Below, one piece after another: positions 5,558 through 57,072 of a stretch of DNA of 64,000 nt (the first letter of the stretch is position 1; every line of letters starts with the position of its first letter). Under the pieces are notes generated by a model. The model ran no database searches, had not been told where the DNA came from, and was given only the letters and a program-made list of their open reading frames with translations. Where the stretch lies: positions 70,159 to 134,158 of the forward strand of contig CAZMNY010000011.1 in assembly GCA_964567745.1 (NCBI GenBank), read 5' to 3'. The stretch comes from an uncultured Pirellulaceae bacterium (GTDB taxonomy: Bacteria; Planctomycetota; Planctomycetia; Pirellulales; Pirellulaceae). The position numbers and the translations under genes are program-made.

Positions 5558-5695
5558 GCGGCTGCGGCTTAAGCGCCGTCGATCCGTTGAACACGCCGAC
5601 TTCCGAGTCGTTCGTCGATCTTGTCCGACGACTTCGAAGTCAAGCTTGCCTCCCTCACGACTCGATTCGCCACGCGACAGCTAACACGCCAAGGT

Positions 5696-8600
5696 ATGAA
5701 TGTGATGAACGATAACAAATCCCGGCGCTACTTCACGCCACTGCGTCTTCTGGTCATTGTCGTGAGCGCGACCTCGATTTGGACGTTGGCCCATTATGCG
5801 GCGACAGCCCAGAAGCCGCCGGCGAGACGCGTGACTAAGAAGGACATGCCGAGGATCCCGCATACGGAGCCAAAGGACGCGCTCAAGACGTTTCAGTTGG
5901 CAAAGAATTGCAGCCTGGAACTAGTGGCCGCGGAGCCGCTTGTCGCCGATCCCGTTGACGCTTGCTTTGACGAGAATGGGCGAATGTTCGTCGCCGAGAT
6001 GCATGGGTATCCGTTTTCCCAAGAGCCGACCAAGCTGAATCCAGCTGGGGGCGGCAAGAAAGACGCGGGCATTATTCGCTTGCTCGAGGATACCGATGGC
6101 GACGGGCAAATGGATCGAAGCGTCGTCTACGCCGACAAACTCAGTTGGCCCACGTCGGTCTGTTGCTACAACGGCGGACTGTTCGTGCTCGCGCCGAAGT
6201 ACCTGTACTACTTGAAAGATACCGACGGCGACGACCGAGCTGACGTGCGCGACGTCGTCCTATCTGGATTTGGTCGCGACAATGTTCAGTCGCTCGCCAA
6301 CAACTTGAAATGGGGCCTCGACAACAAGATCTATTTCGCCACCGGACGCAACCCAAAGAAGCTGCTGCATCGCGGGAAGCCTCTGTTTTCAACTTCCGGC
6401 AGCGACTTGCGATTCGATCCGAAGACAGAGAAATTCGAACGCGTCACCGGCGGGCAGCAATTCGGCCACTCGATGGATGATTGGGGAAATCGATTCGTTT
6501 GCAGTAACAGCAATCACATTCAACAGGTCGTCTACCCGCAGCGGTACCTCGCGCGAAACCCATACCTCGCCGTCTCCAGCCTCGTACGCAGCATCGCGGC
6601 CGACGGCGCGAGCGCTCGAGTTTATCGCACGAGTCCGCCTGAGCCGTGGCGGATTATTCGGCAGAAATGGCGAGCTGAGGCGAAGGGCTACAAGCTGGTC
6701 ATCAACGATGACGGGGCCTGGGAGTTTCTCCCGCTCGATCCGTCCAAGAAGAAAGGTGCCGTGCCGACCGAGTACCCCGTCGGCTATTTCACCTCGGCGA
6801 CCGGCGTCACCATTTATCGTGGCGGCGGTTACCCGACTGAATTTGCAGGCAACGCTTTCGTTGGCGATGTCGGTGGCAATATTGTTCATCGAAAGCGTTT
6901 GAACGCGAAAGGCGTCCTATTCTCTGCGAGTCGAGCGGATGAAGGCGAAGAGTTTATTCGTTCGTCGGACAACTGGTTCCGGCCGGTCAACTTTGTCAAC
7001 GCGCCCGACGGCAGCCTCTACGTTCTCGACATGTACCGCGAGACGGTCGAGCACCCGTATTCGATCCCCGAAGAGATCAAGAAGTTCCTGCACTTGCAGA
7101 GCGGCGCTGATCGTGGCCGAATCTATCGCATCGTGACGCCGAAAATGAAGCGAACCGCACAAGTCAAGTTGGGGTCGCTCTCGAGCGCTCAGCTCGTTGC
7201 GGCGCTCGATTCCAAAAACGCCTGGAGCCGACAGTCGGCCCAACGATTGCTCTGGCAACGACAGGATAAAACCGTCGCCGCCGACCTGGCTCGACTCGCC
7301 GCTACGTCCAAGAACCCGCTGGCGCGACTGCATGCGTTATGCACGTTGGCCAGTCTCGACATGCTCAACGCGGAGCAACTTGTGGGGGCGATGTCGGATT
7401 CCAATCCTCGAGTGCGTGAGCATGCGGTGAGGTTGTCCGAGCCCTTCTTGGCGGAGAGCGAGGCTGTTGCCAAAGCCGCGCTCGCGCTTTGCGGCGACGA
7501 CGATAACCGAGTGCGATTTCAGTTGGCGTTCTCGCTTGGCGAATCCAGCGATGCGACTGCGGTTAACGGATTGATGCGGTTGGCGCGCGACCGTCGCAAT
7601 GGCGGTGAGATCCGCACGGCGTTGCTCACCTCCGCCGGGGCCAACCCCGACAAGCTGATCGTCGCTTTGCTCAAAGACTCACAGTATCTCAAACAGCCTC
7701 ACGCTTCCGCCTTGCTTTCGGATCTCTGCGAAATCATCGGAGCGAATCCCAAGTCGATATTCGCTCAGCGTGTACTCGCCGCTGCGGCTTCTTCTGAGCT
7801 GCCGACCTCTTGGCAACAGACAGTCTTGTTTGGTGTCGGCGAGGGCTTGAGGCGACGGGGATCATCCGTGCCGCGATTGCTAGGCGAGAAGTCGACTCCG
7901 CCCGAGGTTCTCGAACAAACAGCAGGTCTCTTTGAGCGAGCCGCGGAGGTTGCGGGCGACGACAAACAGCCGATGGTCCAACGAGTTCAGTCGGTTTTGT
8001 TGCTGGCATTCGCGAACCCGGAAGTTGCCGACAAGTATTTGCCAGAGTTTCTTTCGCCGAGATCGCCTCAATCACTTCAGCTTGCCGCCGCCGCGTCGCT
8101 CGGCCGACAGGAATCGGCCTCGGCAGCTCGGCTCTTGCTGGAAGGTTGGCGTGGCTACAGTCCGGCCGTGCGGCGCGAAGTCATCGACGCTCTGTTGTCT
8201 ACGGTCAAACGCATTGACACGCTTCTCACCGCGATCGAGAGCGATGCGGTCAAGCCAAGCGAGCTGGAACGCGACAAGAAGCAGGTGCTGCTGAAACACC
8301 CGAACGTGGGCGTTCGCAAACGGAGCGTCAAGCTGTTCGGCGGCGAATTTAATTCAGATCGAGCCAGGGTCGTGGCTCAGCTCCAATCGGTGCTCGATCT
8401 GGACGGCGACATCAATCGCGGGCGGGAAATATTCGGCAAAAAGTGCTCCGTTTGCCATAGGGTCGACGAAGTCGGGCACGCCGTCGCGCCGGATTTGTCG
8501 TCGGTGAAGAATAAATCGTCGAGCGATCTATTGATCGCCATTCTCGATCCCAACCGAGAGGCTCAGCCCAACTTCAACACGTATAACGTCGTGACGGAAA

Positions 8601-8815
8601 GCGGCAAGATCTACACCGGAATCATTGCCTCCGAGACGGCGAACAGCATTACGCTTCGCCGTTCTGAAGCCAAGGAGGATGTGATCCTTCGCAGTACAGT
8701 TGAGGAGCTGACTTCGACTGGCGTTTCTCTGATGCCGGAAGGTCTCGAGAAGGAATTGTCGCCGCAAGATATCGCGGACGTGATTGCCTTCGTCAAGTCG
8801 ATTAAGTCGAAATAG
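5696..8815 (+). CDS. Large PVC-lineage protein: N-terminal putative membrane-bound dehydrogenase (Piru_Ver_Nterm-type beta-propeller), central HEAT/PBS-lyase repeats, C-terminal c-type cytochrome domain (CSVCH)
   Basis: ATG at 5696 (MNVMNDNKSRRYFTPLRLLVIVV signal/TM). HEAT-like repeats (NPRVREHAVRL, DDDNRVRFQLAFSLGE). CxxCH heme motif GKKCSVCHRVDEVG near the C-terminus. Architecture is typical of Rhodopirellula/Verrucomicrobium proteins. Confidence 0.8.
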   Translation: MNVMNDNKSRRYFTPLRLLVIVVSATSIWTLAHYAATAQKPPARRVTKKDMPRIPHTEPKDALKTFQLAKNCSLELVAAEPLVADPVDACFDENGRMFVAEMHGYPFSQEPTKLNPAGGGKKDAGIIRLLEDTDGDGQMDRSVVYADKLSWPTSVCCYNGGLFVLAPKYLYYLKDTDGDDRADVRDVVLSGFGRDNVQSLANNLKWGLDNKIYFATGRNPKKLLHRGKPLFSTSGSDLRFDPKTEKFERVTGGQQFGHSMDDWGNRFVCSNSNHIQQVVYPQRYLARNPYLAVSSLVRSIAADGASARVYRTSPPEPWRIIRQKWRAEAKGYKLVINDDGAWEFLPLDPSKKKGAVPTEYPVGYFTSATGVTIYRGGGYPTEFAGNAFVGDVGGNIVHRKRLNAKGVLFSASRADEGEEFIRSSDNWFRPVNFVNAPDGSLYVLDMYRETVEHPYSIPEEIKKFLHLQSGADRGRIYRIVTPKMKRTAQVKLGSLSSAQLVAALDSKNAWSRQSAQRLLWQRQDKTVAADLARLAATSKNPLARLHALCTLASLDMLNAEQLVGAMSDSNPRVREHAVRLSEPFLAESEAVAKAALALCGDDDNRVRFQLAFSLGESSDATAVNGLMRLARDRRNGGEIRTALLTSAGANPDKLIVALLKDSQYLKQPHASALLSDLCEIIGANPKSIFAQRVLAAAASSELPTSWQQTVLFGVGEGLRRRGSSVPRLLGEKSTPPEVLEQTAGLFERAAEVAGDDKQPMVQRVQSVLLLAFANPEVADKYLPEFLSPRSPQSLQLAAAASLGRQESASAARLLLEGWRGYSPAVRREVIDALLSTVKRIDTLLTAIESDAVKPSELERDKKQVLLKHPNVGVRKRSVKLFGGEFNSDRARVVAQLQSVLDLDGDINRGREIFGKKCSVCHRVDEVGHAVAPDLSSVKNKSSSDLLIAILDPNREAQPNFNTYNVVTESGKIYTGIIASETANSITLRRSEAKEDVILRSTVEELTSTGVSLMPEGLEKELSPQDIADVIAFVKSIKSK

Positions 8816-13368: not shown

Positions 13369-14784
13369 CTAGTCCGCGTCGCCCTTGGAGTCAGATGGTT
13401 GTGATCCTGATTGTTGAAATATATCTACAATGGTCATGTCCTGGTCGGGCGTTACAGTTCGCAGATCGACAACCAGACGGTCGCGTTGCACTCGGCAAAC
13501 GACTGCGGGATCTCCGGCTCTCAATTCCGCCGCCATGCCGTTCACTCCCTTGGCGTCGGGTTCGATCTCGACACACCAGGTTTCGATTTGTTGAGTTGGC
13601 ACGCTGCCGCCGCCTAGGAATGTGTGGTCAAAAGCGGGCTCCGCGGAGGCGACGGAGGAACACGCGGCGAGCTGAGGCGCCATCCGTTCAGCTCGTTGTT
13701 TGAGGTTTTCGATCGGCGTCGAAAGCATCGTCATCAGCGGGACGCCCTGTTTCATCGCCTCTTCGTCTCGATGTAGTCGGAGTGTCGCTGCGAGTGCGGC
13801 GAGAGTCAGTTTGTCGACTCGCAAAGCCCTCATCATCGGGTGCTTCGCCACGCGGTCAACCAACGTCTTCTTGCCGACAATGATTCCGCATTGAGGTCCC
13901 CCGAGCAGTTTGTCGCCGGAGAACAAGACGATGTCAGCGCCTTGCTTAATGCTCTCGCGAGCAATCGGCTCGCCGGCAACTCCCCAGGGCGCCAGATCGC
14001 GCATCGCGCCGGAGCCGATATCGTCGATCACCGGAACGTGACGCTGTCGTCCGAGTTCGACAAGCTCTTCGAGCGACGGCTGTTCGGTAAACCCGACGAT
14101 GACGTAGTTGCTTGTGTGGACTCGCATCAGCGCCGCGGTCTCTTGTCCGATCGCGTCTCGATAGTCGGCGATGCGAGTTTTATTGGTGGCGCCAACTTCA
14201 CGGAGAATCGCGCCGCTCGACGTCATAACTTCCGGCAGCCGGAAACTGCCGCCAATTTCAACCAATTCGCCTCGCGAGACAATGATCTCTTTTCCGTGGC
14301 CCAATGCGGTCAATGTGAGCAGCGTCGCCCCGGCGTTGTTATTGACGACCACGGCCGCTTCGGCGCCAGTCAGCTCCTTCAGCAAGCCGTTAACCGCATC
14401 GACTCGCTGTGAGCGTTCGCCCGTTTTCAGGTCGAGTTCGACGCTCGCGTAACCTCGACCGATTTCTAGCATCGCCTGGAGAGCGGCTTCGGGCAGAGGC
14501 GCTCGGCCCAACCCTGTGTGCAGAAGAATGCCTGTTGCGTTGATGACCGGTTTGAGCGGCAAGCGTTCGTTGGAGCGAATCCAGTCCGCGATGCTCTCGG
14601 CCAGCTCAAGCGGTCCGCTCGTCGCCTTCTCCGCCGCCGTCTGCAGCTCAGATCGCATGTTGTCCAAGAAGTCCCGCACGCCGTCGACAACGACGCTGCG
14701 ACTTGCCGCGGACACCAACTGCTTGAGCGGTTGCGTTTCCAGGAGCTCGTTAACCGATGGGATTCGGCGAAATACGTTGGACAT
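13369..14784 (-). CDS. selA: L-seryl-tRNA(Sec) selenium transferase (selenocysteine synthase)
   Basis: 471 aa. Matches to SelA throughout (VINATGILLHTGLGRA, SRGELVEIGGSFRLPEVM, PLP-lysine context FSGDKLLGGPQCGIIVGKK, RALRVDKLTLAALAATLRLH). Confidence 0.92.
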   Translation of the reverse strand: MSNVFRRIPSVNELLETQPLKQLVSAASRSVVVDGVRDFLDNMRSELQTAAEKATSGPLELAESIADWIRSNERLPLKPVINATGILLHTGLGRAPLPEAALQAMLEIGRGYASVELDLKTGERSQRVDAVNGLLKELTGAEAAVVVNNNAGATLLTLTALGHGKEIIVSRGELVEIGGSFRLPEVMTSSGAILREVGATNKTRIADYRDAIGQETAALMRVHTSNYVIVGFTEQPSLEELVELGRQRHVPVIDDIGSGAMRDLAPWGVAGEPIARESIKQGADIVLFSGDKLLGGPQCGIIVGKKTLVDRVAKHPMMRALRVDKLTLAALAATLRLHRDEEAMKQGVPLMTMLSTPIENLKQRAERMAPQLAACSSVASAEPAFDHTFLGGGSVPTQQIETWCVEIEPDAKGVNGMAAELRAGDPAVVCRVQRDRLVVDLRTVTPDQDMTIVDIFQQSGSQPSDSKGDAD

Positions 14785-15022: not shown

Positions 15023-16945
15023 TTAGGCGGTTGGTGCCATGACGCGGAGGTCGCCGTTGCGGCGGGTGACGCCGATTCGGTCGAGGTGTTCGCAGAAGGG
15101 TACGGCGTACTTGCGGGTCGTCTCCAACGCTTCACGTATCTCGCTCAACGTGAGCCCGTCGCCGCTCCGCATTTTTTCGCGGAGTGTTTCTACTGCGGCG
15201 TCTTGCGCGTCACGATGGATAAAATAATCGCTACTGACCTCGACAAGTGCGCCGTCGGCGGCAGCAAGCGAGATCAATTGAGGCACCGATTGTTTGAGCT
15301 TCTGCACCGAATCCTGACATTGCTTCACCGTCGGAGATTCGAGACCCGCGTTCTGATACATGTCGATGATCTGTTCGAGCAGTGCTCGTTCATTCTTGGA
15401 AAGCTTGGGGCCTCTGCCCTGCAGTGAGACGCCACGACTGGAGACGAGGATTGCCTTGGAGCGTTGCATCCTGCGAAGGAGCTGTTCGATCAACGCAGGG
15501 TTCTTCAGGTAGTCGAATTCGTGTGCGAGCTGGGTGCGGTCAAAGCTCGATCGCAATGGCACTTCGTCGTGCATTCGGCCCAACGCCTTGGCCACACGCT
15601 GCTCGATTCGGTTGAGCACGTCTCGATGAATCGCCTGTTGGCGAGTGACCGACAACGGAATGAGCTCGATCTCGCCTCGCTCAAGCAGCGCGTCCATGGC
15701 GGCTTGGACATCATCGACCCCAGCCGCGCGGGCCAGCGCGATCGGTGCCCATGGTGTGAGGCCGAAGAAGAACGCGGCCGCTGATGCTCGGCTCAGCGCG
15801 TCGTCCGAAGCGAGTTGCTTGAGCATTGCCCGATCCAGGTCATCAGGTTTCTTCAGTCGCTCAGCGTCCGTGGAGAGAATATTCCCGCCGCCGAGCGTCA
15901 CGACGGGCGACTCGCTTCGCAACACGTAGGGCTGACGCCACACGGACGTAACCGCTTCGCCCAACGCGAGCTGGGCGAACGCCGTTTGGCCTGGCTCCAA
16001 CGGGCCTTCCTGCAGTAGTCTGACGGTGCAGAGGACTTGGGCCGAGCCGAGGTGAAGCCGAACTCGCGAACGATCTTTCAGCGGTCGAGGCGTTTCCGCA
16101 AGCAGATTGAGTTCAACGGTTAGTAGCTGCGAGGGCTCGAGAAAGCCCGGTGCTGCGAGTTCTTGTCCGCGAACGATGTGATCGTGACGAACGCCGGCCA
16201 AGTTGACAGCGGCCCGCTGCCCCCGAGTAACTTGCTCCAGGTTTTGATCGTGGTTTTGCAGACCTCGGATTCGTACTTCGTCGCCGCCCGGCTGAATCAC
16301 CAACACATCGCCGACCTCAGCCGAACCGCTCACCACGCTGCCGGTGACGACGGCGCCGTGTCCGGCCATTGTGAAGACGCGATCGATCGGCATGCGAAAC
16401 GGCTTCACGGCTCGCAGCATCCGTTCCGATTGGCAGGCGGCGTCCGCAGCCAGAATGAGTTCGGCCTTGAGTTGCTCGATGCCCTCGCGAGTCTCGGCGC
16501 TAGTGGGCACGATCGAGGCCGACTCGAGAAACGTTCCCTCGAGCAACTCACGAATCTCCTCAATCACCATTTCCAGCCAATCCGGATCGACGAGGTCGGA
16601 TTTGGTTACCGCGACAACTCCGTGTTGCAGTCGCAGCAGCTTGAGGATTTCGAGGTGTTCGCGAGTCTGAGGTTTGATGGAGTCGTCGGCGGCAATCACC
16701 AGCAAAGCCAGATCGATTCCGGTGGCGCCCGCCAGCATGTTGCGGACAAACCGCTCGTGGCCAGGCACGTCGACGACGCCCAACCGATGCTCGCCGAGTT
16801 TCAATTCGGCGAATCCGATGTCGATCGTAATCCCGCGTTTCTTTTCTTCCGGGAGTCGATCTGTGTCAACTCCCGTCAGCGCACGGACCAGCGATGTCTT
16901 GCCATGGTCGATATGACCGGCCGTGCCGAGAATAAGGTCCGCCAT
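15023..16945 (-). CDS. selB: Selenocysteine-specific translation elongation factor
   Basis: 640 aa. N-terminal GTPase [25 protein letters not shown]..., then EF-Tu-like domains 2-3 and a long C-terminal winged-helix extension typical of SelB. Confidence 0.92.
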
Positions 16946-37177: not shown

Positions 37178-38398
37178 CTATGTATCCGACTTGGGCGGAG
37201 TCAGCTCGGGCTGCCCGGGTGCGGCATTCGGTGGCTTGATTTCAAGCTGCGGTTCTTGGGGCGGGAGCGGCAGTTTTGGTGCCGGCAAGTCCTCGACTTT
37301 GGGACCCGATTTTTCGACAGGAGTTGCGCCTTCGAGCCGCGCGACTCGTTCTTCAAGTCGCGCGATCGTCTCTTGCAATCGTCGAATCTGCTCGCTGAGC
37401 ATGGCGACTTCGTCGCTTCCCAACCGTAGCCCATCGGGGCTCACGCCAGGCACCGCCCCAGCTTCGGGCGGAAACGGAGTCGGCGGAAGCGGATGGGGGC
37501 CGGCCAGCGGCACCGGGTCTTTACCGACGACGTCGTCGAGCAACCTGCCGAGTGCGCCGAGGACGGGACGTCGGCCGCCATCCCCCAAACGATTCTCCAT
37601 TCCGCTGGGTGTCTCCGGAGCTTGAGCCATCACCGTCACGTCTCGCAATTGAAGAACCGTTCCTTCGTAGAGCGACAGCTGCAGTCTTTGACCGATCCGC
37701 GCCGAACTGACGATGGCAATGAGATCCTCCGGCCTTTGCACTCGACGTCCATCGACGGCGATGACGACCGAACCGGCTCGAACGCCTGCGCGTGCCGCGC
37801 CCGATCCGGGCACCACGCTGGAGACCAACGCGCCCTGCCTGACTCTAAGCCCGTGGGTGACTCTTGCCGATTCGGTGACTGGAACAACGGAGACGCCCAA
37901 CGATCCTTTCGCAGCTGATGCGGTGCTGGTATCCGCTGGCGGCACCGTCGGCGAAGCAGGGGCTGCGCCTCCAGCGACCTGGCCAATTCGCATGGTCGTG
38001 GAAATTGAGGTGCGTAAACGCCGCAGTCGAATCGGTACGGTCTGTCCCACGCGAACGCCCGCCACAGCTCGCGAAAGCGTCGCCAGCCCAGCCACTCGCG
38101 TTGTGTCGAATCGAGTGATCACGTCGCCGACGCGAATCCCCGCCAGTTCTGCGGGACCGCCTCGATCGACCGATAACACTTCCACTCCGCCGTCGATGCT
38201 CGTATCTCCTCGAAAACCGAGATACGGCTGTTCGACTCCGCGGGCCGATCTCGCTTCGGTCCCGCCGCCAAGCAATCTCTGTTCAAGGCGTTCCAAGGCC
38301 GACTGTGCGAAGCCCGATGTGGCGACGCCGAGCCACAACGCGATCGACCAACGGATCGACTGCCAGATTGGTTGCCCCAACGTCATCGCCTTGTTCAT
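37178..38398 (-). CDS. Secreted protein with two PDZ domains and a Pro-rich coiled-coil C-terminus
   Basis: Signal MNKAMTLGQPIWQSIRWSIALWLGVATSGFAQ. PDZ-like GVEVLSVDRGGPAELAGIRVGDVITRFD and GALVSSVVPGSGAARAGVRAGSVVIAVDGRRV. Confidence 0.7.
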   Translation of the reverse strand: MNKAMTLGQPIWQSIRWSIALWLGVATSGFAQSALERLEQRLLGGGTEARSARGVEQPYLGFRGDTSIDGGVEVLSVDRGGPAELAGIRVGDVITRFDTTRVAGLATLSRAVAGVRVGQTVPIRLRRLRTSISTTMRIGQVAGGAAPASPTVPPADTSTASAAKGSLGVSVVPVTESARVTHGLRVRQGALVSSVVPGSGAARAGVRAGSVVIAVDGRRVQRPEDLIAIVSSARIGQRLQLSLYEGTVLQLRDVTVMAQAPETPSGMENRLGDGGRRPVLGALGRLLDDVVGKDPVPLAGPHPLPPTPFPPEAGAVPGVSPDGLRLGSDEVAMLSEQIRRLQETIARLEERVARLEGATPVEKSGPKVEDLPAPKLPLPPQEPQLEIKPPNAAPGQPELTPPKSDT

Positions 38399-39498: not shown

Positions 39499-39917
39499 CA
39501 AGCTCAATCGCCGTAGTGATTTGCGGCGATCGGCGAATTGTGTTCGCGGCGGAGGTCCCTTTGAGGCGACAGGTTTTCCACCGTCGAGACAGAATGAAAT
39601 CGGACGGAACTGGCAAAATATTCGGCGGGCCTTATTCTGCTTTTTCCGTACTTTCCGACCGGTGACTCGCATTGCTTCCAAAAAAAGAAGGCAACGCTCA
39701 ACTGAGAGGTTTGACACCTCTGCTAGCAGCCTTACAATCGGGCCTCGGTAACGGACTCGATTTTCAACGCGGCGCATCGGCGTCGCCTTATCTAGCATCG
39801 TGGCGTTCGTGGCGGCAAGTGGCGCCTTCCACTTATTGACGGAATTGGTGCAAACCACCCCACCCACTGGCGTTCGCGGTATGCGCATGGGATGCGTCCA
39901 ACGTGACCAGGGACGAT

Positions 39918-41273
39918 ATGGAGATCGTGTCAGCGATTCGGCAGCGGCTTGCTGACAAGGTCGGGAAAGAACGATTTGAGTTGTGGTTTGGCCACAATGT
40001 CAGCCTCGCCTTTCAGGCGAACGTTCTTTCCGTGGTAGCGCGGAACGATTTCTGGCTTGACCGGCTCCGCACTCATTTTCGTCGAGATCTTGAGCTCGCC
40101 TGTTTCGAAGTCGTTGGCCAGCCGCCGCAGCTCAAGTTCGTGTCCCGCGGAGCGGAAAAACCACAACCGCGGAAAACGACCCGTCGTCGGTCCGCAGCCG
40201 ATCCAAATCAAAAAACGACGGACTCATCGTCGTTGGGTGCCGAACGCGGTCTGACCTCGTACGTGATCGGCGAGTGCAACAAACTCGCGCACATGTCGGC
40301 AGCGACAGCGCTTTCGCGATTGGGGCGTTGGTCGCCGTTGTTCATTCACGGCCCGCACGGAAGCGGCAAGACGGAGCTGCTGAAGTGCCTAAAGAATTCG
40401 GCTAGAGACAACCTAAACGCGACTCGCGTCGTGATGATGTCGGCTGAGCAATTCACGACATTTTTCTTAGAGGCTTTGCACGGCAGCGGTCTGCCCAACT
40501 TCCGGCGTAAGTATCGCGACCTCGACCTGTTGATTATCGACGACGTGCAATTTCTGGCGGGCAAGCCGGCAACGCTCGTGGAATTACACCACACGATCGA
40601 CTCGATTCAGCGGAATGGACGACAACTGGTTTTCGCTTCCGATCGTCCCGCGCTGGAACTGTCCGGACTTGGGCAAGAGTTAATTGGCCGCATGACCGGC
40701 GGTCTGACTTGCGCCATGGAGTCCCTCGACGAAGCAACTCGCCGATCCATTTTTCGAGCTCAAGCAGCTCAGCGCGGACTCAAGATTCCGGCGACCGTTG
40801 TGGATGAAGTGGCGTCGCAGATTTGTGGCGACGGCCGACAAGTCATTGGCGCCTTGAATCGTCTCGAGGCGGTTAGCATCGCACAGCAAAGTCCGATCAC
40901 CGACGAGCTGGCCTCTGAATGTCTCCACGATATCTTTCGCAGCCAACGCAAGGCGGTGCGAATGGATGACATTGAAGGTGCCGTGTGTGAAGTATTTGGT
41001 CTCGATCGACGGACGCTGCAATCGGATCGAAAGACGAGAAGCATTTTGCAGCCGCGGATGTTGGCCATGTGGCTCGCACGAAAACACACGCGAGCCGCCT
41101 ATTCCGAAATCGGCCGATACTTCGGCAAACGCAGCCACAGCACGGTCATTTCCGCACAGCAGAAGGTGACTCGCTGGATGAGTGAAAACGCGGCGGTGCA
41201 ATTGCCCAACGGCGAATGCGGAGTGCAGGCGGCGTTGCACCGCATCGAGTCACAGCTTCGCACCGGAGGTTAG
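39918..41273 (+). CDS. dnaA: DnaA-family replication initiator-like AAA+ protein with atypical Walker A (GPHGSGKT)
   Basis: N-terminal DnaA-like domain, AAA+ module (Walker A GPHGSGKTEL, Walker B LLIIDDVQFLAGK), C-terminal DnaA-box-binding helix-turn-helix (EIGRYFGKRSHSTVISAQQKV). ATG at 39918; the track start 39903 is GTG. Confidence 0.7.
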   Translation: MEIVSAIRQRLADKVGKERFELWFGHNVSLAFQANVLSVVARNDFWLDRLRTHFRRDLELACFEVVGQPPQLKFVSRGAEKPQPRKTTRRRSAADPNQKTTDSSSLGAERGLTSYVIGECNKLAHMSAATALSRLGRWSPLFIHGPHGSGKTELLKCLKNSARDNLNATRVVMMSAEQFTTFFLEALHGSGLPNFRRKYRDLDLLIIDDVQFLAGKPATLVELHHTIDSIQRNGRQLVFASDRPALELSGLGQELIGRMTGGLTCAMESLDEATRRSIFRAQAAQRGLKIPATVVDEVASQICGDGRQVIGALNRLEAVSIAQQSPITDELASECLHDIFRSQRKAVRMDDIEGAVCEVFGLDRRTLQSDRKTRSILQPRMLAMWLARKHTRAAYSEIGRYFGKRSHSTVISAQQKVTRWMSENAAVQLPNGECGVQAALHRIESQLRTGG

Positions 41274-41406: not shown

Positions 41407-43173
41407 ATGGCTGACGCCGACAAAAAAAAACGCCTTCGCCATGCGGCAATCATTCTTTGCACGTTTGTATTCGTCGTTACTGGAAGTCTCGCCGTCTACT
41501 CGTTTATGAGTATCTGCGTGGTACCCGAGGATCCGCCCTTCACTGGGCTGACCGAGGAGCACCAGCGACGCATCTGGGACGCCGAGCACACAACGTTTGC
41601 GCTGGAGACCCACTTTGGCAAGCCGTTTGTCGCGGCGCTAAAAACGGGCGCCGCGGACGAGCTGGCCGCATTCTTCAGCGATGATTTTGAAGGGAGCCTG
41701 ATCGATTCCGAGGCGTCGGAAACACGCGGTCAATCCATTGTTGCGGAAAACCTGTTTGGGGCGAGTGGGCATGCAAGTTCGCGCAAGCAGTGGGTCCGCA
41801 GTTTGCTTCAATCGCTCGAGTCCGTTGAGAAGATGGATCGCGCCCGCTTGCGTGTGCTTCACATTCAGGAAATCGAGGACGACACATGGAGATGTGAATT
41901 GTTGCTCACAGCCAGCGGCAAGGACGAAGGCGGGCAGCTCGTACGCTGGTCGGCGCGTGGCAAAGGGGATTTTCGGCTAGCCGACAAGGCCGAGGCTGGA
42001 ACGGCTCCGATTGCCTCGCGGTGGAGTTTTGAGTCGGTTCGTGTTGCAACAAGTCCGCGTCCATTGATGGAAGAAGTCACAGACGCATCGAATTTGCAGG
42101 CGGTCGAGATTCCCGACAACTGGGATTTGCCGGTGGCTCAGGCGACGGCTTATCGTTTTCAATTTTCGGTTGAGGACTTTGACCGAGATGGTTGGCTCGA
42201 CATCGCCGTTGCCACCAAACGCGAACCTCCGATCTTGTTGCGCGGCAGACCGGATGTGACGTTTGAGGAGGTGGGCGAGCCATTTGGGATCTCGAGCGAG
42301 ATGGCTGCGGATGATGTCTACTTGGCCGCTTGGATCGACTTTGACAACGACGGCTTTTCCGATTTGCTGTTGGGCGACCGGCTTTATCACAACGAGTCGG
42401 GCAAGAGTTTTCGGGACGTGACAAGCGAATGCGGGCTCGAGTTTGGGGCGTCGCCCAAAGGTTGTACTGTCGCCGATTTTGACTGCGACGGTCGACTCGA
42501 TCTGTACATCATTTACGATCAACCCAACCTCGACGTCGACGCGTCTCCGGGCGGGGAATCGGCCGCTTGGGTTGGGGACGGACGGTCGGGCGGCGACAAT
42601 CAGCTGTGGAAGAACTTGGGCGACGGGCGTTTTCGCCGCGAGACGTACCAGTCGGGTGCGGATGGAGGACCGAGGCGAAGCCATGCGGCGGCTTGGTTGC
42701 ATTTTGACGACGACCGTTTCCCCGATCTGTACATCGTGAACGATTTTGGCCCCAACCGTCTGTTGAGAAACCGAGGCAACGGGTCGTTTGAAGATGTCAC
42801 CGAGCCAACGGGAGCCGGCGATTTCGCCACCAGCATGGGCGTCGCGGCGGGCGACTTGAGTGGCGACGGGCAAGCGGAACTTTATGTCGCCAACATGTAT
42901 TCGAAGATGGGGCGGCGGATCATCGATTACGTCTCAAACGACGATTACCCGCCAGGCGTTTACGAACAGATTTGCGGGTCGTGCGCTGGCAATCGCGTCT
43001 ACCAATTCGACCCGTCTCAGTCGAAGTTTCATGAGTCCAGCGAGGAATTGGAAGTCAACGGAGTCGGCTGGTCCTACGGTCCGGCTCTTGCTGACTTTGA
43101 TGGCGACGGACTGCTCGACATCTACGCCACGACAGGTTATCTGAGTTTCGCGCGCAACGAACCCGACGGCTGA
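41407..43173 (+). CDS. CRTAC1-family FG-GAP/VCBS repeat protein, N-terminal part (ends at in-frame TGA 43174..43176)
   Basis: N-terminal TM/signal MADADKKKRLRHAAIILCTFVFVVTGSLAVYSF. Multiple FDRDGWLDIAV / DFDNDGFSDLLLG / DFDCDGRLDLYI / FDDDRFPDLYIVN repeats. Confidence 0.75.
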   Translation: MADADKKKRLRHAAIILCTFVFVVTGSLAVYSFMSICVVPEDPPFTGLTEEHQRRIWDAEHTTFALETHFGKPFVAALKTGAADELAAFFSDDFEGSLIDSEASETRGQSIVAENLFGASGHASSRKQWVRSLLQSLESVEKMDRARLRVLHIQEIEDDTWRCELLLTASGKDEGGQLVRWSARGKGDFRLADKAEAGTAPIASRWSFESVRVATSPRPLMEEVTDASNLQAVEIPDNWDLPVAQATAYRFQFSVEDFDRDGWLDIAVATKREPPILLRGRPDVTFEEVGEPFGISSEMAADDVYLAAWIDFDNDGFSDLLLGDRLYHNESGKSFRDVTSECGLEFGASPKGCTVADFDCDGRLDLYIIYDQPNLDVDASPGGESAAWVGDGRSGGDNQLWKNLGDGRFRRETYQSGADGGPRRSHAAAWLHFDDDRFPDLYIVNDFGPNRLLRNRGNGSFEDVTEPTGAGDFATSMGVAAGDLSGDGQAELYVANMYSKMGRRIIDYVSNDDYPPGVYEQICGSCAGNRVYQFDPSQSKFHESSEELEVNGVGWSYGPALADFDGDGLLDIYATTGYLSFARNEPDG

Positions 43174-43179
43174 ACGTGT

Positions 43180-43833
43180 TTGTGGCGGGCTGTCGTGACA
43201 CAGCCACTCGATCGAACTCATCGAATGCAAGCCAAAGGCGAAATCGATGAAGAGCATGGCGAGTTTTGGGTCGAGAACCCGTTCTTGATTGCCGAGGAGG
43301 GCAAGAACCTCAGCGCTTACGAACGCAATAAACTGTTTCTCAATCGCCGCGCCAAAGGGCCCTTCCTCGACGTTTCCTTCGCGTCGTCGGCCAATATCGA
43401 TTCCGACAGTCGTTCGGCGGTCGCCGCCGACTTCAATCGGGACGGTGCCCCAGACCTGCTCGTCGGCTCAGTCGGCGGAGGCCCGTTGCGTCTGTTCCTC
43501 AACCGATTTCCGCACGACAACCGCTTCGTGCGATTGAGACTTCGAGGCGCCAAGAGCAACGCCGATGGGATCGGCGCCCGCCTCGAACTCACCGCTAGCG
43601 AGACCGTTATTCGGCGGCAGCTATTCGCGCCGAATGGATTCATGGGACAGGGGCCAGCCGAGTGGAGCATCGGCGTCGGACCGGCAGAAACCATCGATCA
43701 ACTGACCATCGACTGGCCATCCGGACTCAAGCAAACCTGGCGCGACATTCCGTCCGATCGAGCCATCACGCTCAGCGAAGGCGTCGACAAGGCGCAAGTA
43801 AACGCGTTATCCAGCCAAGCGACTCAGCCCTGA
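43180..43833 (+). CDS. C-terminal part of the same CRTAC1-like gene: one more FG-GAP repeat plus ASPIC/UnbV domain; same frame as 41407..43173, separated only by one TGA
   Basis: ADFNRDGAPDLLVGS repeat then ASPIC-like GIGARLELTASETVIRRQLF...GFMGQGPAEWSIGVG...IDWPSG. The track start 43180 is TTG. The first in-frame ATG is at 43225. Confidence 0.65.
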   Translation: MWRAVVTQPLDRTHRMQAKGEIDEEHGEFWVENPFLIAEEGKNLSAYERNKLFLNRRAKGPFLDVSFASSANIDSDSRSAVAADFNRDGAPDLLVGSVGGGPLRLFLNRFPHDNRFVRLRLRGAKSNADGIGARLELTASETVIRRQLFAPNGFMGQGPAEWSIGVGPAETIDQLTIDWPSGLKQTWRDIPSDRAITLSEGVDKAQVNALSSQATQP

Positions 43834-55134: not shown

Positions 55135-56565
55135 ATGGAGCATTCGCTCATGTCAAAAACACGCAACCCTCGGGAATCGCAGACTCCCGATTCGACCGAT
55201 GGGAGCAAGAAAGAGCTTTCGTTGGCCGAAGAAATCGCCGCTGAGGGCGAGAATCAGCGCGACACCGAAGAGACTCACGACCGATACGAACGTATCAAAC
55301 AAGGCGAGATTCACATCGCTGTGCTGCAGAAGATGAACATGTCGCAGCTCATGGAGGAGGCTCGCAAGGAGAACGTGAAAGAGGTCGCTGGCCTGAAGAA
55401 GCAGGATCTGATTTTCAAGATCCTCAAGGAACGGGTCAAATTGAACGGTCTGATGTACGGCGAGGGCACGCTGGAGATCCTCCCGGACGGGTTTGGATTC
55501 CTCCGCAGTCCTGACTACCACTATCTCTCTTGCCCCGACGACATCTACGTCTCGCCCAGTCAGATTCGCCGATTTGGTTTGCAAACGGGTTCGACGGTAT
55601 CGGGGCAAATTCGGCCGCCGAAGGAAAACGAGCGCTATTTTGCGTTGCTTCGAGTTGAAGCGATCAACTACGAAGATCCCAACCTGATGACCGATAAGGT
55701 CTCCTTCGACGACCTGACTCCGATGCATCCGGATCGTCGCATCGTGGTGGAGACGGACGGCGAGTTGTCGACTCGTGTCGTCGATCTAGTCACGCCGATT
55801 GGATTCGGCCAGCGTGGGCTGATTGTCAGTCCGCCTCGGGCCGGGAAGACGATTCTGTTGCAGAAGATGGCCAGAGCAGTTTTGACGAATTATCCCGATA
55901 GCTACGTCATCATGCTGCTGATCGATGAACGTCCCGAAGAGGTGACGGACATGGAGCGGGAGGTCCGCGGGGAAAACTGCGAGGTGGTGAGTTCGACATT
56001 CGATGAGCCGCCGTCGCGACACGTGCAAGTTTCGCAGATGGTAATCGAAAAAGCCAAGCGAATGGTGGAATACGGAATCGACGTCGTCATCTTCCTCGAC
56101 TCGATTACGCGATTGGCCCGAGCTTGGAACGGCGAGTGCCAGCAGTCGGGGAAATTGCTTTCCGGCGGACTGGACGCGAACGCCTTGCAGCAGCCTAAAC
56201 GGTTTTTCGGTTCGGCGCGTCGAGTCGAAGAAGGCGGCTCGCTGACGATCTTGGCGACGGCACTGGTCGATACGGGAAGCAAGATGGACGACGTCATTTT
56301 TGAAGAGTTTAAGGGGACGGGGAACTTAGAAATCGTCCTCGACCGCCGCATCGTCGACAAGCGAGTTTGGCCGGCCATCGACATCAATCGCAGTGGAACT
56401 CGGCGCGAGGAAATGTTGATGGACCCGGACGAGTATCGCCGCGTTTGCGTGCTGCGAAGAGTGCTGGCGGACATGAATCCGCCGGAGGCGATGGAGTTGT
56501 TGACGTCGCGATTGCAAAAGACCAAGACGAACGGGGAATTCCTGATGGGAATGAACCTCAGTTGA
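55135..56565 (+). CDS. rho: Transcription termination factor Rho
   Basis: Rho N-terminal and cold-shock-like RNA-binding region, Walker [11 protein letters not shown] loops. Lys/Glu-rich N-terminal extension. Confidence 0.95.
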
Positions 56566-56592
56566 GCCGTGGTCCTAAGTGAAGAGTCGATT

Positions 56593-57072
56593 ATGCCCCA
56601 AGTAATTGAGCCGCTGAATTCTGATGCCGATGGCCGATACGCCATTGCGGTGTCGCGATATAACGAGACGATCACGTCGCGTTTGTTGGATGGCGCCGTT
56701 GAGACTTTGGTTGGCGCTGGGGTGCCGGACGGTCAGATTGACGTCGCCTGGGCGCCCGGCGCGTGGGAGCTGCCGCTGGTCGCAGCGGAATTGGCCGCCT
56801 CAGACCGCTACCAGGCAATACTCTGCTTGGGCGCCGTGATCCGCGGCGAGACGACTCACGATCAACATATCAACCGCCAGGTGAGTTCCGCGTTGGGAAA
56901 TCTCTCGCTGGAACAGGGCCTGCCAATCTTGTTCGGCGTATTGACTTGCCAATCGCTCGAGCAAGCTCTAAACCGAGCGGGCGGCTCGGTGGGCAACAAA
57001 GGCCATGAATGCGCCGAGGCCGCTCTGGAGATGGTCGGCCTGTTGCAGGCGCTCAGACAAGCAGCACAATAA
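56593..57072 (+). CDS. ribH: 6,7-dimethyl-8-ribityllumazine synthase
   Basis: ATG at 56593. [20 protein letters not shown]...[15 protein letters not shown] signature. Confidence 0.92.

Follow-up and report, generated by a model that had tools for sequence, protein, structure and literature searches.

A CRTAC1-like FG-GAP/ASPIC gene of an uncultured Pirellulaceae bacterium whose conserved in-frame UGA very probably encodes selenocysteine

Bacterial selenoprotein genes carry an in-frame UGA codon for selenocysteine (Sec), followed within the coding region by a stem-loop, the bacterial Sec insertion sequence (bSECIS) element. In the consensus model of Zhang and Gladyshev, as summarized in PMC13188914, the bSECIS element has a loop of 3 to 9 nt, a stem of 4 to 16 bp, a G in the first two loop positions, a distance of 16 to 37 nt from the UGA, and a minimum free energy (MFE) of −7.5 kcal/mol or below. 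According to the same review, nearly all selenoproteins have homologs with cysteine in place of Sec, and the usual discovery strategies need a UGA that is aligned with Cys in homologs (PMC13188914). CRTAC1-type proteins, i.e., murine CRTAC1 (9etn), the bacterial proteins annotated as “CRTAC1 family protein,” and the E4/UnbV protein of the enediyne cassette, share an FG-GAP beta-propeller and a UnbV_ASPIC domain. Here, we analyzed a 64,000-nt stretch of DNA (hereafter, the window; contig CAZMNY010000011.1, GC content of 57.4%) from an uncultured Pirellulaceae bacterium, in which a CRTAC1-like gene at positions 41407 to 43833 is interrupted by a single in-frame UGA at 43171 to 43173. This codon very probably encodes Sec, which would make the interval one intact gene for an 808-residue selenoprotein.

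The two open reading frames (ORFs) of this locus, 41407 to 43173 (ATG start, 588 amino acids [aa] plus stop) and 43180 to 43833, lie in one common frame, and the TGA is the lone stop between them, with the junction reading ...YLSFARNEPDG-UGA-T-C-L-W-R-A-V-V.... Read-through extends the product to a terminal TGA at 43831 to 43833, and the earliest ATG 3′ of the in-frame TGA is codon 607. An earlier examination of this DNA, made from the letters and a list of ORFs (the sequence-only reading), had already recognized two same-frame ORFs parted by a single TGA, and the junction bears this out. The position that it gave for the TGA, 43174 to 43176, is in fact the ACG codon for Thr that follows, and its read-through product of approximately 805 aa is to be replaced by one of 808 aa. 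Its description of FG-GAP repeats on both sides of the stop followed by an ASPIC domain agrees with Pfam, which places UnbV_ASPIC at residues 721 to 787. When the window was screened for other in-frame TGA candidates, the sole other long pair was rejected. The rho and ribH genes (55135 to 57072, plus strand) share a frame, with the rho TGA at 56563 to 56565 and the ribH GTG start at 56569, and so mimic an interrupted gene with a stop and one codon between its parts, yet they are two ordinary and unrelated genes. Same-frame pairs split by a TGA thus occur by chance, and the significance of the interval at 41407 to 43833 rests on comparative data and not on its frame.

A nonsense mutation or a miscalled base that truncates a formerly intact CRTAC1-like gene is a priori the simplest reading of a single in-frame stop, and two ORFs are called in public annotation. 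The sequence-only reading had preferred this explanation and regarded Sec read-through with a U-x-C motif as conceivable; the comparative data reverse that order. The exact 588-aa product (P0001) is present on 14 contigs, and the three that were inspected came from separate samples (JGI 3300007511, JGI 3300007513, and ENA ERZ23498945). When the read-through sequence was searched against 5.8 billion proteins, the best 120 homologs (43 to 51% identity, 547 to 666 aa) all ended at ...(K/E)PDG. The codon was TGA in 25 of 25 orthologous loci found in reference genomes by protein homology, including the isolates Fuerstiella marisgermanici and Stieleria marina, many Planctomycetota metagenome-assembled genomes (MAGs), Verrucomicrobiales, and Akkermansiaceae, and in each locus it was followed in frame by [TS]-C-[LMF]-W-R-A-V-V and 200 to 220 further codons. 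A metagenome scan with the pattern CCN GAY GGN NNN WSN TGY NTN TGG NNN GCN GTN GTN, which leaves the critical codon unconstrained, gave TGA in 120 of 120 among the JGI metagenome matches listed (at least 120 loci). Overall, the stop at this codon was TGA in 145 of 145 sequences, the metagenome part being counted among the matches listed, and was never TAA or TAG. More than 140 distinct orthologs, from two phyla, thus share this TGA, and their divergence of 40 to 60% excludes copies of one contaminant. The part 3′ of the stop is also more conserved among orthologs (53 to 60% identity) than the part 5′ of it (43 to 51%). With these observations and the variation described below, we give a pseudogene or sequencing error practically no credence. 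One typical Sec-type ortholog (L015, JBBDHZ010000287.1) is filed under “Candidatus Paceibacterota,” which looks like a binning error in view of the family distribution.

The codons that follow the TGA are conserved as protein. Codons +1 to +3 vary synonymously while their amino acids are conserved, with Thr encoded by ACA, ACG, ACT, or ACC, Cys by TGC or TGT, and the third position by eight different Leu, Met, or Phe codons; there is no start codon in the interval from the TGA to this run. This pattern indicates that codons +1 to +3 are translated, and synonymous-only variation from the first codon after the stop argues against a pseudogene or an error. As proposed for checking by the sequence-only reading, homology is continuous across the site in single-ORF relatives without Sec. 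These non-Sec homologs are single polypeptides: proteins of the same architecture (790 to 845 aa) align at 32 to 43% identity, and Acidobacterial non-Sec paralogs (approximately 1260 to 1350 aa) align over residues 77 to 808 of the window protein. Another possibility is a true split gene, in which the UGA is a genuine stop and separate synthesis of two polypeptides, of 588 aa and approximately 200 aa, precedes their assembly. There is no physical obstacle to a split propeller, and gene callers do find starts in the 3′ part, either at an internal ATG or at a Leu or Met codon taken as start. The matches to a C-terminal query were indeed fragments of approximately 200 aa, but the callers had placed their starts at assorted internal codons (MWRAVV, MQAKG, MSRPLD, and VTQPL), none of which is conserved. 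Ahead of the earliest possible start, the three codons that follow the TGA drift synonymously but keep their amino acids, the stop is invariably TGA, and the break would fall between strands 2 and 3 of one blade. A split would also leave unexplained a covarying hairpin at SECIS distance that is lost where the TGA is replaced. Orthologs in two separate genes, which the sequence-only reading had named as a sign against read-through, do appear in annotation, but only because each of them bears the same TGA. We therefore consider two separate polypeptides highly improbable, and Sec insertion at a translated UGA the preferred explanation.

The hairpin in question, GGCUGU-CGUGAC-ACAGCC, lies at 43188 to 43205, with 14 nt from the UGA to the first stem base and 20 nt to the loop. 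Its 6-bp stem and 6-nt loop had been pointed out 3′ of the UGA by the sequence-only reading, for which a missing SECIS element would have been part of the case against Sec; the hairpin is of SECIS type and covaries. The 6-nt loop, the 6 bp, the 20-nt spacing, and an MFE of −9.2 kcal/mol all fall within the published bSECIS ranges, and G occupies loop position 2 in 126 of 126 unique sequences. Across the same 126 sequences, the stem positions were paired in 98.7% of cases, compared to 18 to 65% when the 3′ partner was slid by 1 to 3 nt, and RNAalifold returned the identical hairpin as the sole consensus structure. One stem pair covaries without a single mismatch: 108 sequences have U-A, and the other 18 have C-G. 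The switch between the two combines a synonymous GCU-to-GCC change (Ala) with a nonsynonymous CAG-to-CGG change (Gln to Arg), so that the protein pays for keeping the pair. On a neighbor-joining tree built from the flanking protein sequence, with the hairpin left out, at least eight independent switch events were counted.

Third-codon positions within the hairpin were also nearly frozen (GTC in 119, GTG in 120, and NCA in 113 of the 126 sequences), with all four bases occurring just outside it. Two controls tie this freezing to the TGA. The Val-Val codons are free (GTG, GTC, GTT, and GTA) in 45 non-Sec paralogs with the W-R-x-V-V motif, and in the clade with Ser at the site (TCC), the hairpin is lost, and even close relatives have different bases at the wobble positions. 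In distant TGA-bearing paralogs, Val-Val is encoded by GTC GTG in five of five cases.

Genes for the Sec machinery are present in the window. The selA and selB genes, which the sequence-only reading had reported nearby, were both confirmed by NCBIfam equivalog models (Table 1); they lie approximately 26 kb upstream of the selenoprotein gene, with selB and selA head to tail at a distance of 238 nt, probably as an operon. Other genes of the window, i.e., rho, a DUF418 gene, and a TatD-like gene, end normally at TGA, as does the selenoprotein gene itself, and the codon is not reassigned in this genome. That the residue inserted at position 589 is Sec is what we infer from these sequence data. Alternatively, a near-cognate tRNA for Trp, Cys, or Arg might decode the UGA, or generic read-through might be promoted by the hairpin, as it can be by downstream RNA structures in some systems. 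If this were the case here, one-step sense mutants (TGG, TGY, and CGA) should be common, but a single Cys fragment was found, and an apparent Trp is an artifact of genetic code 4. The fit of the hairpin to SelB-type bSECIS geometry, the presence of selA and selB, and the normal termination of other genes at TGA also speak against read-through without Sec, which we judge to be very unlikely. Under Sec insertion, the ribosome would reach the UGA, SelB carrying Sec-tRNA(Sec) would bind the in-ORF hairpin and Sec would be inserted, and translation would run on to the true stop at 43831. This recoding follows the usual bacterial route. From its N terminus to its C terminus, the product would have a membrane anchor, an NTF2-like domain, an FG-GAP beta-propeller of the CRTAC1 type, and a UnbV/ASPIC domain.

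We then considered which residues occupy the Sec column in other homologs. At the ortholog level, non-Sec residues were Ser in one clade (P0241, P0388, and P0389), Ala in P0122, and Cys in a single fragment, P0302, a read-derived sequence (47% identity) that reads PDG-C-N-C-V-W and keeps C-x-C. More distant full-length relatives have Val, Asp, Glu, Ala, Leu, Ser, or Asn at this column, and Gly also occurs among homologs that span the site. P0302 is an individual case picked with a junction-region hidden Markov model, which also matched generic FG-GAP repeats and whose residue counts are no clean census. Trp at the Sec column (P0276, L208:77-958) was rejected, since the gene caller had rendered TGA as Trp under genetic code 4. 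The supposedly full-length P0276 product reads on through three more TGA codons into junk, an artifact that could mislead residue censuses. The expectation of the sequence-only reading that Cys would occupy the TGA position was not borne out, with Ser, Ala, Val, Asp, Glu, and Asn as the usual alternatives and P0302 as the one Cys homolog. Neither is there the conserved non-Cys residue that it had named as contrary evidence, as essentially all close orthologs have TGA and one homolog has Cys.

TGA is also found at the identical alignment column in two other, far more distant CRTAC1-like subfamilies (27 to 36% identity, read-through lengths of approximately 1020 to 1400 aa), which are without the Cys at +2. 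Four Acidobacteriota/Bryobacterales proteins (L027:4174, L044:4714, L058:4726, and L066:4087; approximately 1160 to 1400 aa) read DL-U-SFFWRQVVS, and an fdhF-like hairpin, GCGGC-AGGUCGU-GUCGC, follows in their genes. A paralog from the Akkermansiaceae MAG MOX_bin55 (L026:4669) reads DL-U-SNLWRTVV and is followed by GCGCAC-GGUC-GUGCGC; the same MAG also bears the main ortholog (L022). Sec at this column is either old and was lost many times, or was recruited repeatedly.

Such a distribution raises the possibility that Sec is inserted but that recoding is what matters, as a selenium-dependent switch between truncated and full-length products in which side chain 589 is noncatalytic. The aligned position is variable in non-Sec homologs (S, A, V, D, E, L, and N), close relatives tolerate Ser or Ala, and three divergent subfamilies have Sec at this column, the +2 Cys being absent from two of them, all of which would suit a switch. 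On the other hand, the truncated product is without 1.5 blades and the ASPIC domain and is unlikely to fold. Moreover, Cys591 is invariant and Cys526 (motif G-S-C-A-G-N) is conserved in at least 90% of TGA-type orthologs, both being variable in more distant non-Sec homologs, and the sole Cys-for-Sec homolog keeps C-x-C. That more than 140 lineages have strictly kept a codon this costly further argues that the residue itself is selected. We regard the switch as unlikely and favor selection on Sec itself. We tentatively entertain, as a possibility held with far less assurance than Sec insertion, that Sec did not upgrade a pre-existing catalytic Cys but entered CRTAC1-like propellers, perhaps repeatedly, at a blade-insertion position that normally varies, giving a new selenium-based active or binding site on an extracytoplasmic propeller. 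If true, this would be the first integrin-type propeller selenoprotein and would open the bacterial ASPIC/UnbV family to biochemistry for the first time, and searches for Cys/Sec pairs would systematically miss one class of selenoproteins.

To place the Sec site in the protein, the domain architecture was analyzed with Pfam and with an AlphaFold (AF2) model of P0241 (43% identical), the closest full-length non-Sec ortholog, which has Ser at the site and served as a stand-in for the window protein (predicted local distance difference test [pLDDT] of 79 and predicted template modeling score [pTM] of 0.80). Pfam detected FG-GAP_3 (E = 3e-46) in five stretches, plus one blade after the UGA, and a nearly complete UnbV_ASPIC domain (56.6 bits versus a cut-off of 23.4, model positions 1 to 67 of 68). 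The N terminus consists of KKKRLR and then a hydrophobic stretch of approximately 23 residues resembling a signal anchor, and a helix is predicted at residues 2 to 22 of the P0241 model. The topology is probably extracytoplasmic, facing the periplasm, a prediction held with low confidence. The domain that follows (residues ~45 to 225) matches no Pfam or NCBIfam family, but has invariant W57, E60, H61, F64, and E67 in the ortholog alignment, and in a Foldseek search of the P0241 model it gave submatches to 3hx8, LinA 3s5c, and 2bmo_B, which have NTF2/ketosteroid-isomerase-like folds.

In the P0241 model, strand 2 (DLYAATG) and strand 3 (NRLYLN) of a single blade flank the Sec site. A conserved insertion of approximately 60 residues splits this blade and begins with a U-x-C motif made up of Sec589 and the invariant Cys591; its sequence pattern is U-T-C-L-W-R-A-V-V-S-Q-P-L-D-R...G-E-F-W-V-E-N-P-F. 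A location of Sec in the “G-x-F” turn of a canonical FG-GAP repeat was ruled out, as strands 3 and 4 of the blade come after the insertion. In integrin-type propellers, the 1-2 loops bear DxDxDG calcium sites on one face, and ligands are bound on the opposite face, which consists of the 2-3 and 4-1 loops. By analogy, the insertion should project from the functional, usually ligand-binding, face of the propeller. Among the nearest relatives without Sec, Cys526 and Cys591 tend to be present together, and U-x-C, possibly together with Cys526, may form a putative redox-active or metal/chalcogen-binding site, an assignment that we make with low confidence.

Several observations weigh against Sec insertion or against a redox role of the residue. 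Taken as a single sequence, the hairpin is unexceptionally stable relative to shuffled sequences (z = −1.68 for 24 nt and +0.71 for 45 nt); these scores are not significant, and hairpin stability was therefore not used as evidence, the weight being placed on comparison. No Rfam family was matched, either in the whole window at the gathering threshold or in 43140 to 43280 at E values up to 10. The pattern used for the metagenome scan demanded the A-V-V codons within the hairpin, which biases that census to Sec-type genes. The 64-kb window yielded no tRNA, and hence no tRNA-Sec, and selD did not turn up among the window ORFs that were scanned. The Sec-bearing insertion has a pLDDT below 50 in the P0241 model, and its three-dimensional position is not placed. 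Finally, Cys homologs are nearly absent, close non-Sec relatives having Ser or Ala and distant ones Val, Asp, Glu, Leu, or Asn, a pattern that would be unusual if Sec were catalytic and that makes a redox role less likely.

Table 1. Features of the candidate selenoprotein gene and of the Sec machinery in the window
Feature	Position	Strand	Details
Coding part 5′ of the Sec codon	41407..43170	+	Residues 1-588: membrane anchor, NTF2-like domain, FG-GAP blades as far as strand 2 of the blade that is split
Predicted N-terminal transmembrane signal anchor	41440..41508	+	Residues ~12-34, HAAIILCTFVFVVTGSLAVYSFM, after KKKRLR; from translation
Conserved N-terminal domain, NTF2/ketosteroid-isomerase-like	41539..42081	+	Residues ~45-225; approximate borders, by homology
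In-frame UGA, very probably Sec589	43171..43173	+	Motif PDG-U-T-C-L-W; TGA conservation in orthologs
Coding part 3′ of Sec	43174..43830	+	Residues 590-808: rest of insertion, strands 3-4, one blade, UnbV/ASPIC
Bacterial SECIS-type hairpin	43188..43205	+	Stem 43188-43193/43200-43205, loop 43194-43199
FG-GAP blade 3′ of the Sec codon	43318..43470	+	Residues 638-688; Pfam FG-GAP_3/FG-GAP, residues 49-99 of the C-terminal piece
UnbV_ASPIC domain	43567..43767	+	Residues 721-787; Pfam PF07593, E = 2.4e-15
selA, L-seryl-tRNA(Sec) selenium transferase	13369..14784	-	NCBIfam TIGR00474, 558 bits versus cut-off of 268
selB, selenocysteine-specific elongation factor	15023..16945	-	NCBIfam TIGR00475, 363 bits versus cut-off of 242

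The genomic surroundings were compared across 128 loci. No neighbor was conserved among them, the largest neighbor cluster being present in 17 loci in mixed orientation, and no functional inference was therefore drawn from gene context. In the window, a DnaA-family gene (39903 to 41273, plus strand; TIGR00362, 336.6 bits, just below the cut-off of 343.9) lies directly 5′ of the selenoprotein gene. A dnaA-type gene is also found 5′ of the selenoprotein gene on metagenome contigs L002 and L003, and neighbors differ at other orthologous loci. A gene for a Planctomycetes-Verrucomicrobia-Chlamydiae (PVC)-type heme-binding CxxCH protein (TIGR02604/TIGR02603) is located at 5621 to 8815 (plus strand), in keeping with a host of the Planctomycetota/Verrucomicrobiota type. 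A PDZ protein gene at 37178 to 38398 (minus strand) was rejected as a further selenoprotein candidate, since its weak match to a “Trx7/PDZ domain-containing (seleno)protein” model came via PDZ only and the upstream frame has several stops and is without Trx.

The propeller family is apparently undescribed as a selenoprotein. A May 2026 catalog of 119 prokaryotic selenoprotein families and subfamilies does not include a CRTAC1-like propeller family, and the deep-Sep, GOS, and BSepDB papers do not mention one. Full-text literature searches combining selenoprotein or selenocysteine with FG-GAP, ASPIC, or CRTAC1 gave unrelated papers only, although supplements or databases may still list the family. 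No model of NCBIfam release 20 matched either half at E ≤ 1e-5. In RefSeq, the proteins appear truncated as “FG-GAP repeat domain-containing protein,” for instance, WP_077024970.1 (599 aa, F. marisgermanici) and WP_145417794.1 (648 aa, S. marina). At least 120 public protein clusters are cut at this codon, and the C-terminal ASPIC parts are called as separate genes. The near-absence of Cys homologs is a plausible reason why searches for Cys/Sec pairs missed the family, and it exposes a blind spot of this standard strategy. For the prokaryotic selenoproteome, the addition would be a large family, widespread in the environment and drawn from Planctomycetota, Verrucomicrobiota, and Acidobacteriota of marine and soil origin, with a membrane-anchored beta-propeller fold that is not evident among the 119 catalogued families and subfamilies, which are mostly thioredoxin-like. 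From its conservation pattern, the U-x-C motif probably marks the site of chemistry in bacterial CRTAC1/ASPIC/UnbV proteins, and the two cultured carriers, F. marisgermanici and S. marina, make the Sec site directly testable.

Compared to known systems, the locus most closely resembles bacterial selenoprotein genes with an in-ORF SECIS element, of which Escherichia coli fdhF is the prototype, and shares with them an in-frame UGA, a coding-region stem-loop, selA and selB, and a truncated misannotation. The hairpin has the small loop with G, then U, in the first two positions, at 16 to 37 nt from the UGA; it differs from described elements in being family specific with no counterpart in Rfam, and the family differs in that Cys homologs are almost absent. 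As for protein architecture, the best PDB match of the P0241 model was murine CRTAC1 (9etn_A; Foldseek E = 2.1e-26, target-normalized TM score of 0.70), whereas sequence similarity to CRTAC1 itself was marginal (E = 1.8e-6). Acidobacterial CRTAC1-like proteins also share the W-R-x-V-V motif after the Sec column. Relative to CRTAC1, the window protein adds Sec with U-x-C, the N-terminal membrane anchor, and the NTF2-like domain. Pfam found no EGF-like domain of the kind present in vertebrate CRTAC1, and the protein is thus a bacterial CRTAC1-like relative and not a CRTAC1 ortholog.

Two further groups of selenoproteins invite comparison. Outside the thioredoxin fold, U-x-C or C-x-U motifs have been described in the SO_0444 family Cu/Zn efflux transporter (UxC) and in rhodanese form 3 and UshA-like proteins (CxU) (PMC13188914, Table 1). 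In these proteins, which are believed to handle metals or sulfur/selenium species, Sec and Cys are likewise one residue apart, and some members are extracytoplasmic, but the likeness to the window protein is one of motif only, with no relationship in sequence or fold. The catalogued predicted selenoprotein family DUF3179 (PF11376) is linked to the Sec-type propeller by P0444 (972 aa; Logan/ENA contigs), in which a DUF3179 domain with the motif CEAC, a CxxC, is fused N-terminally to a Sec-type FG-GAP protein ending ...RRKPDG. This fusion forms one 90%-identity cluster with seven member sequences, and it weakly hints at a shared redox context; the window protein itself is without a DUF3179 domain.

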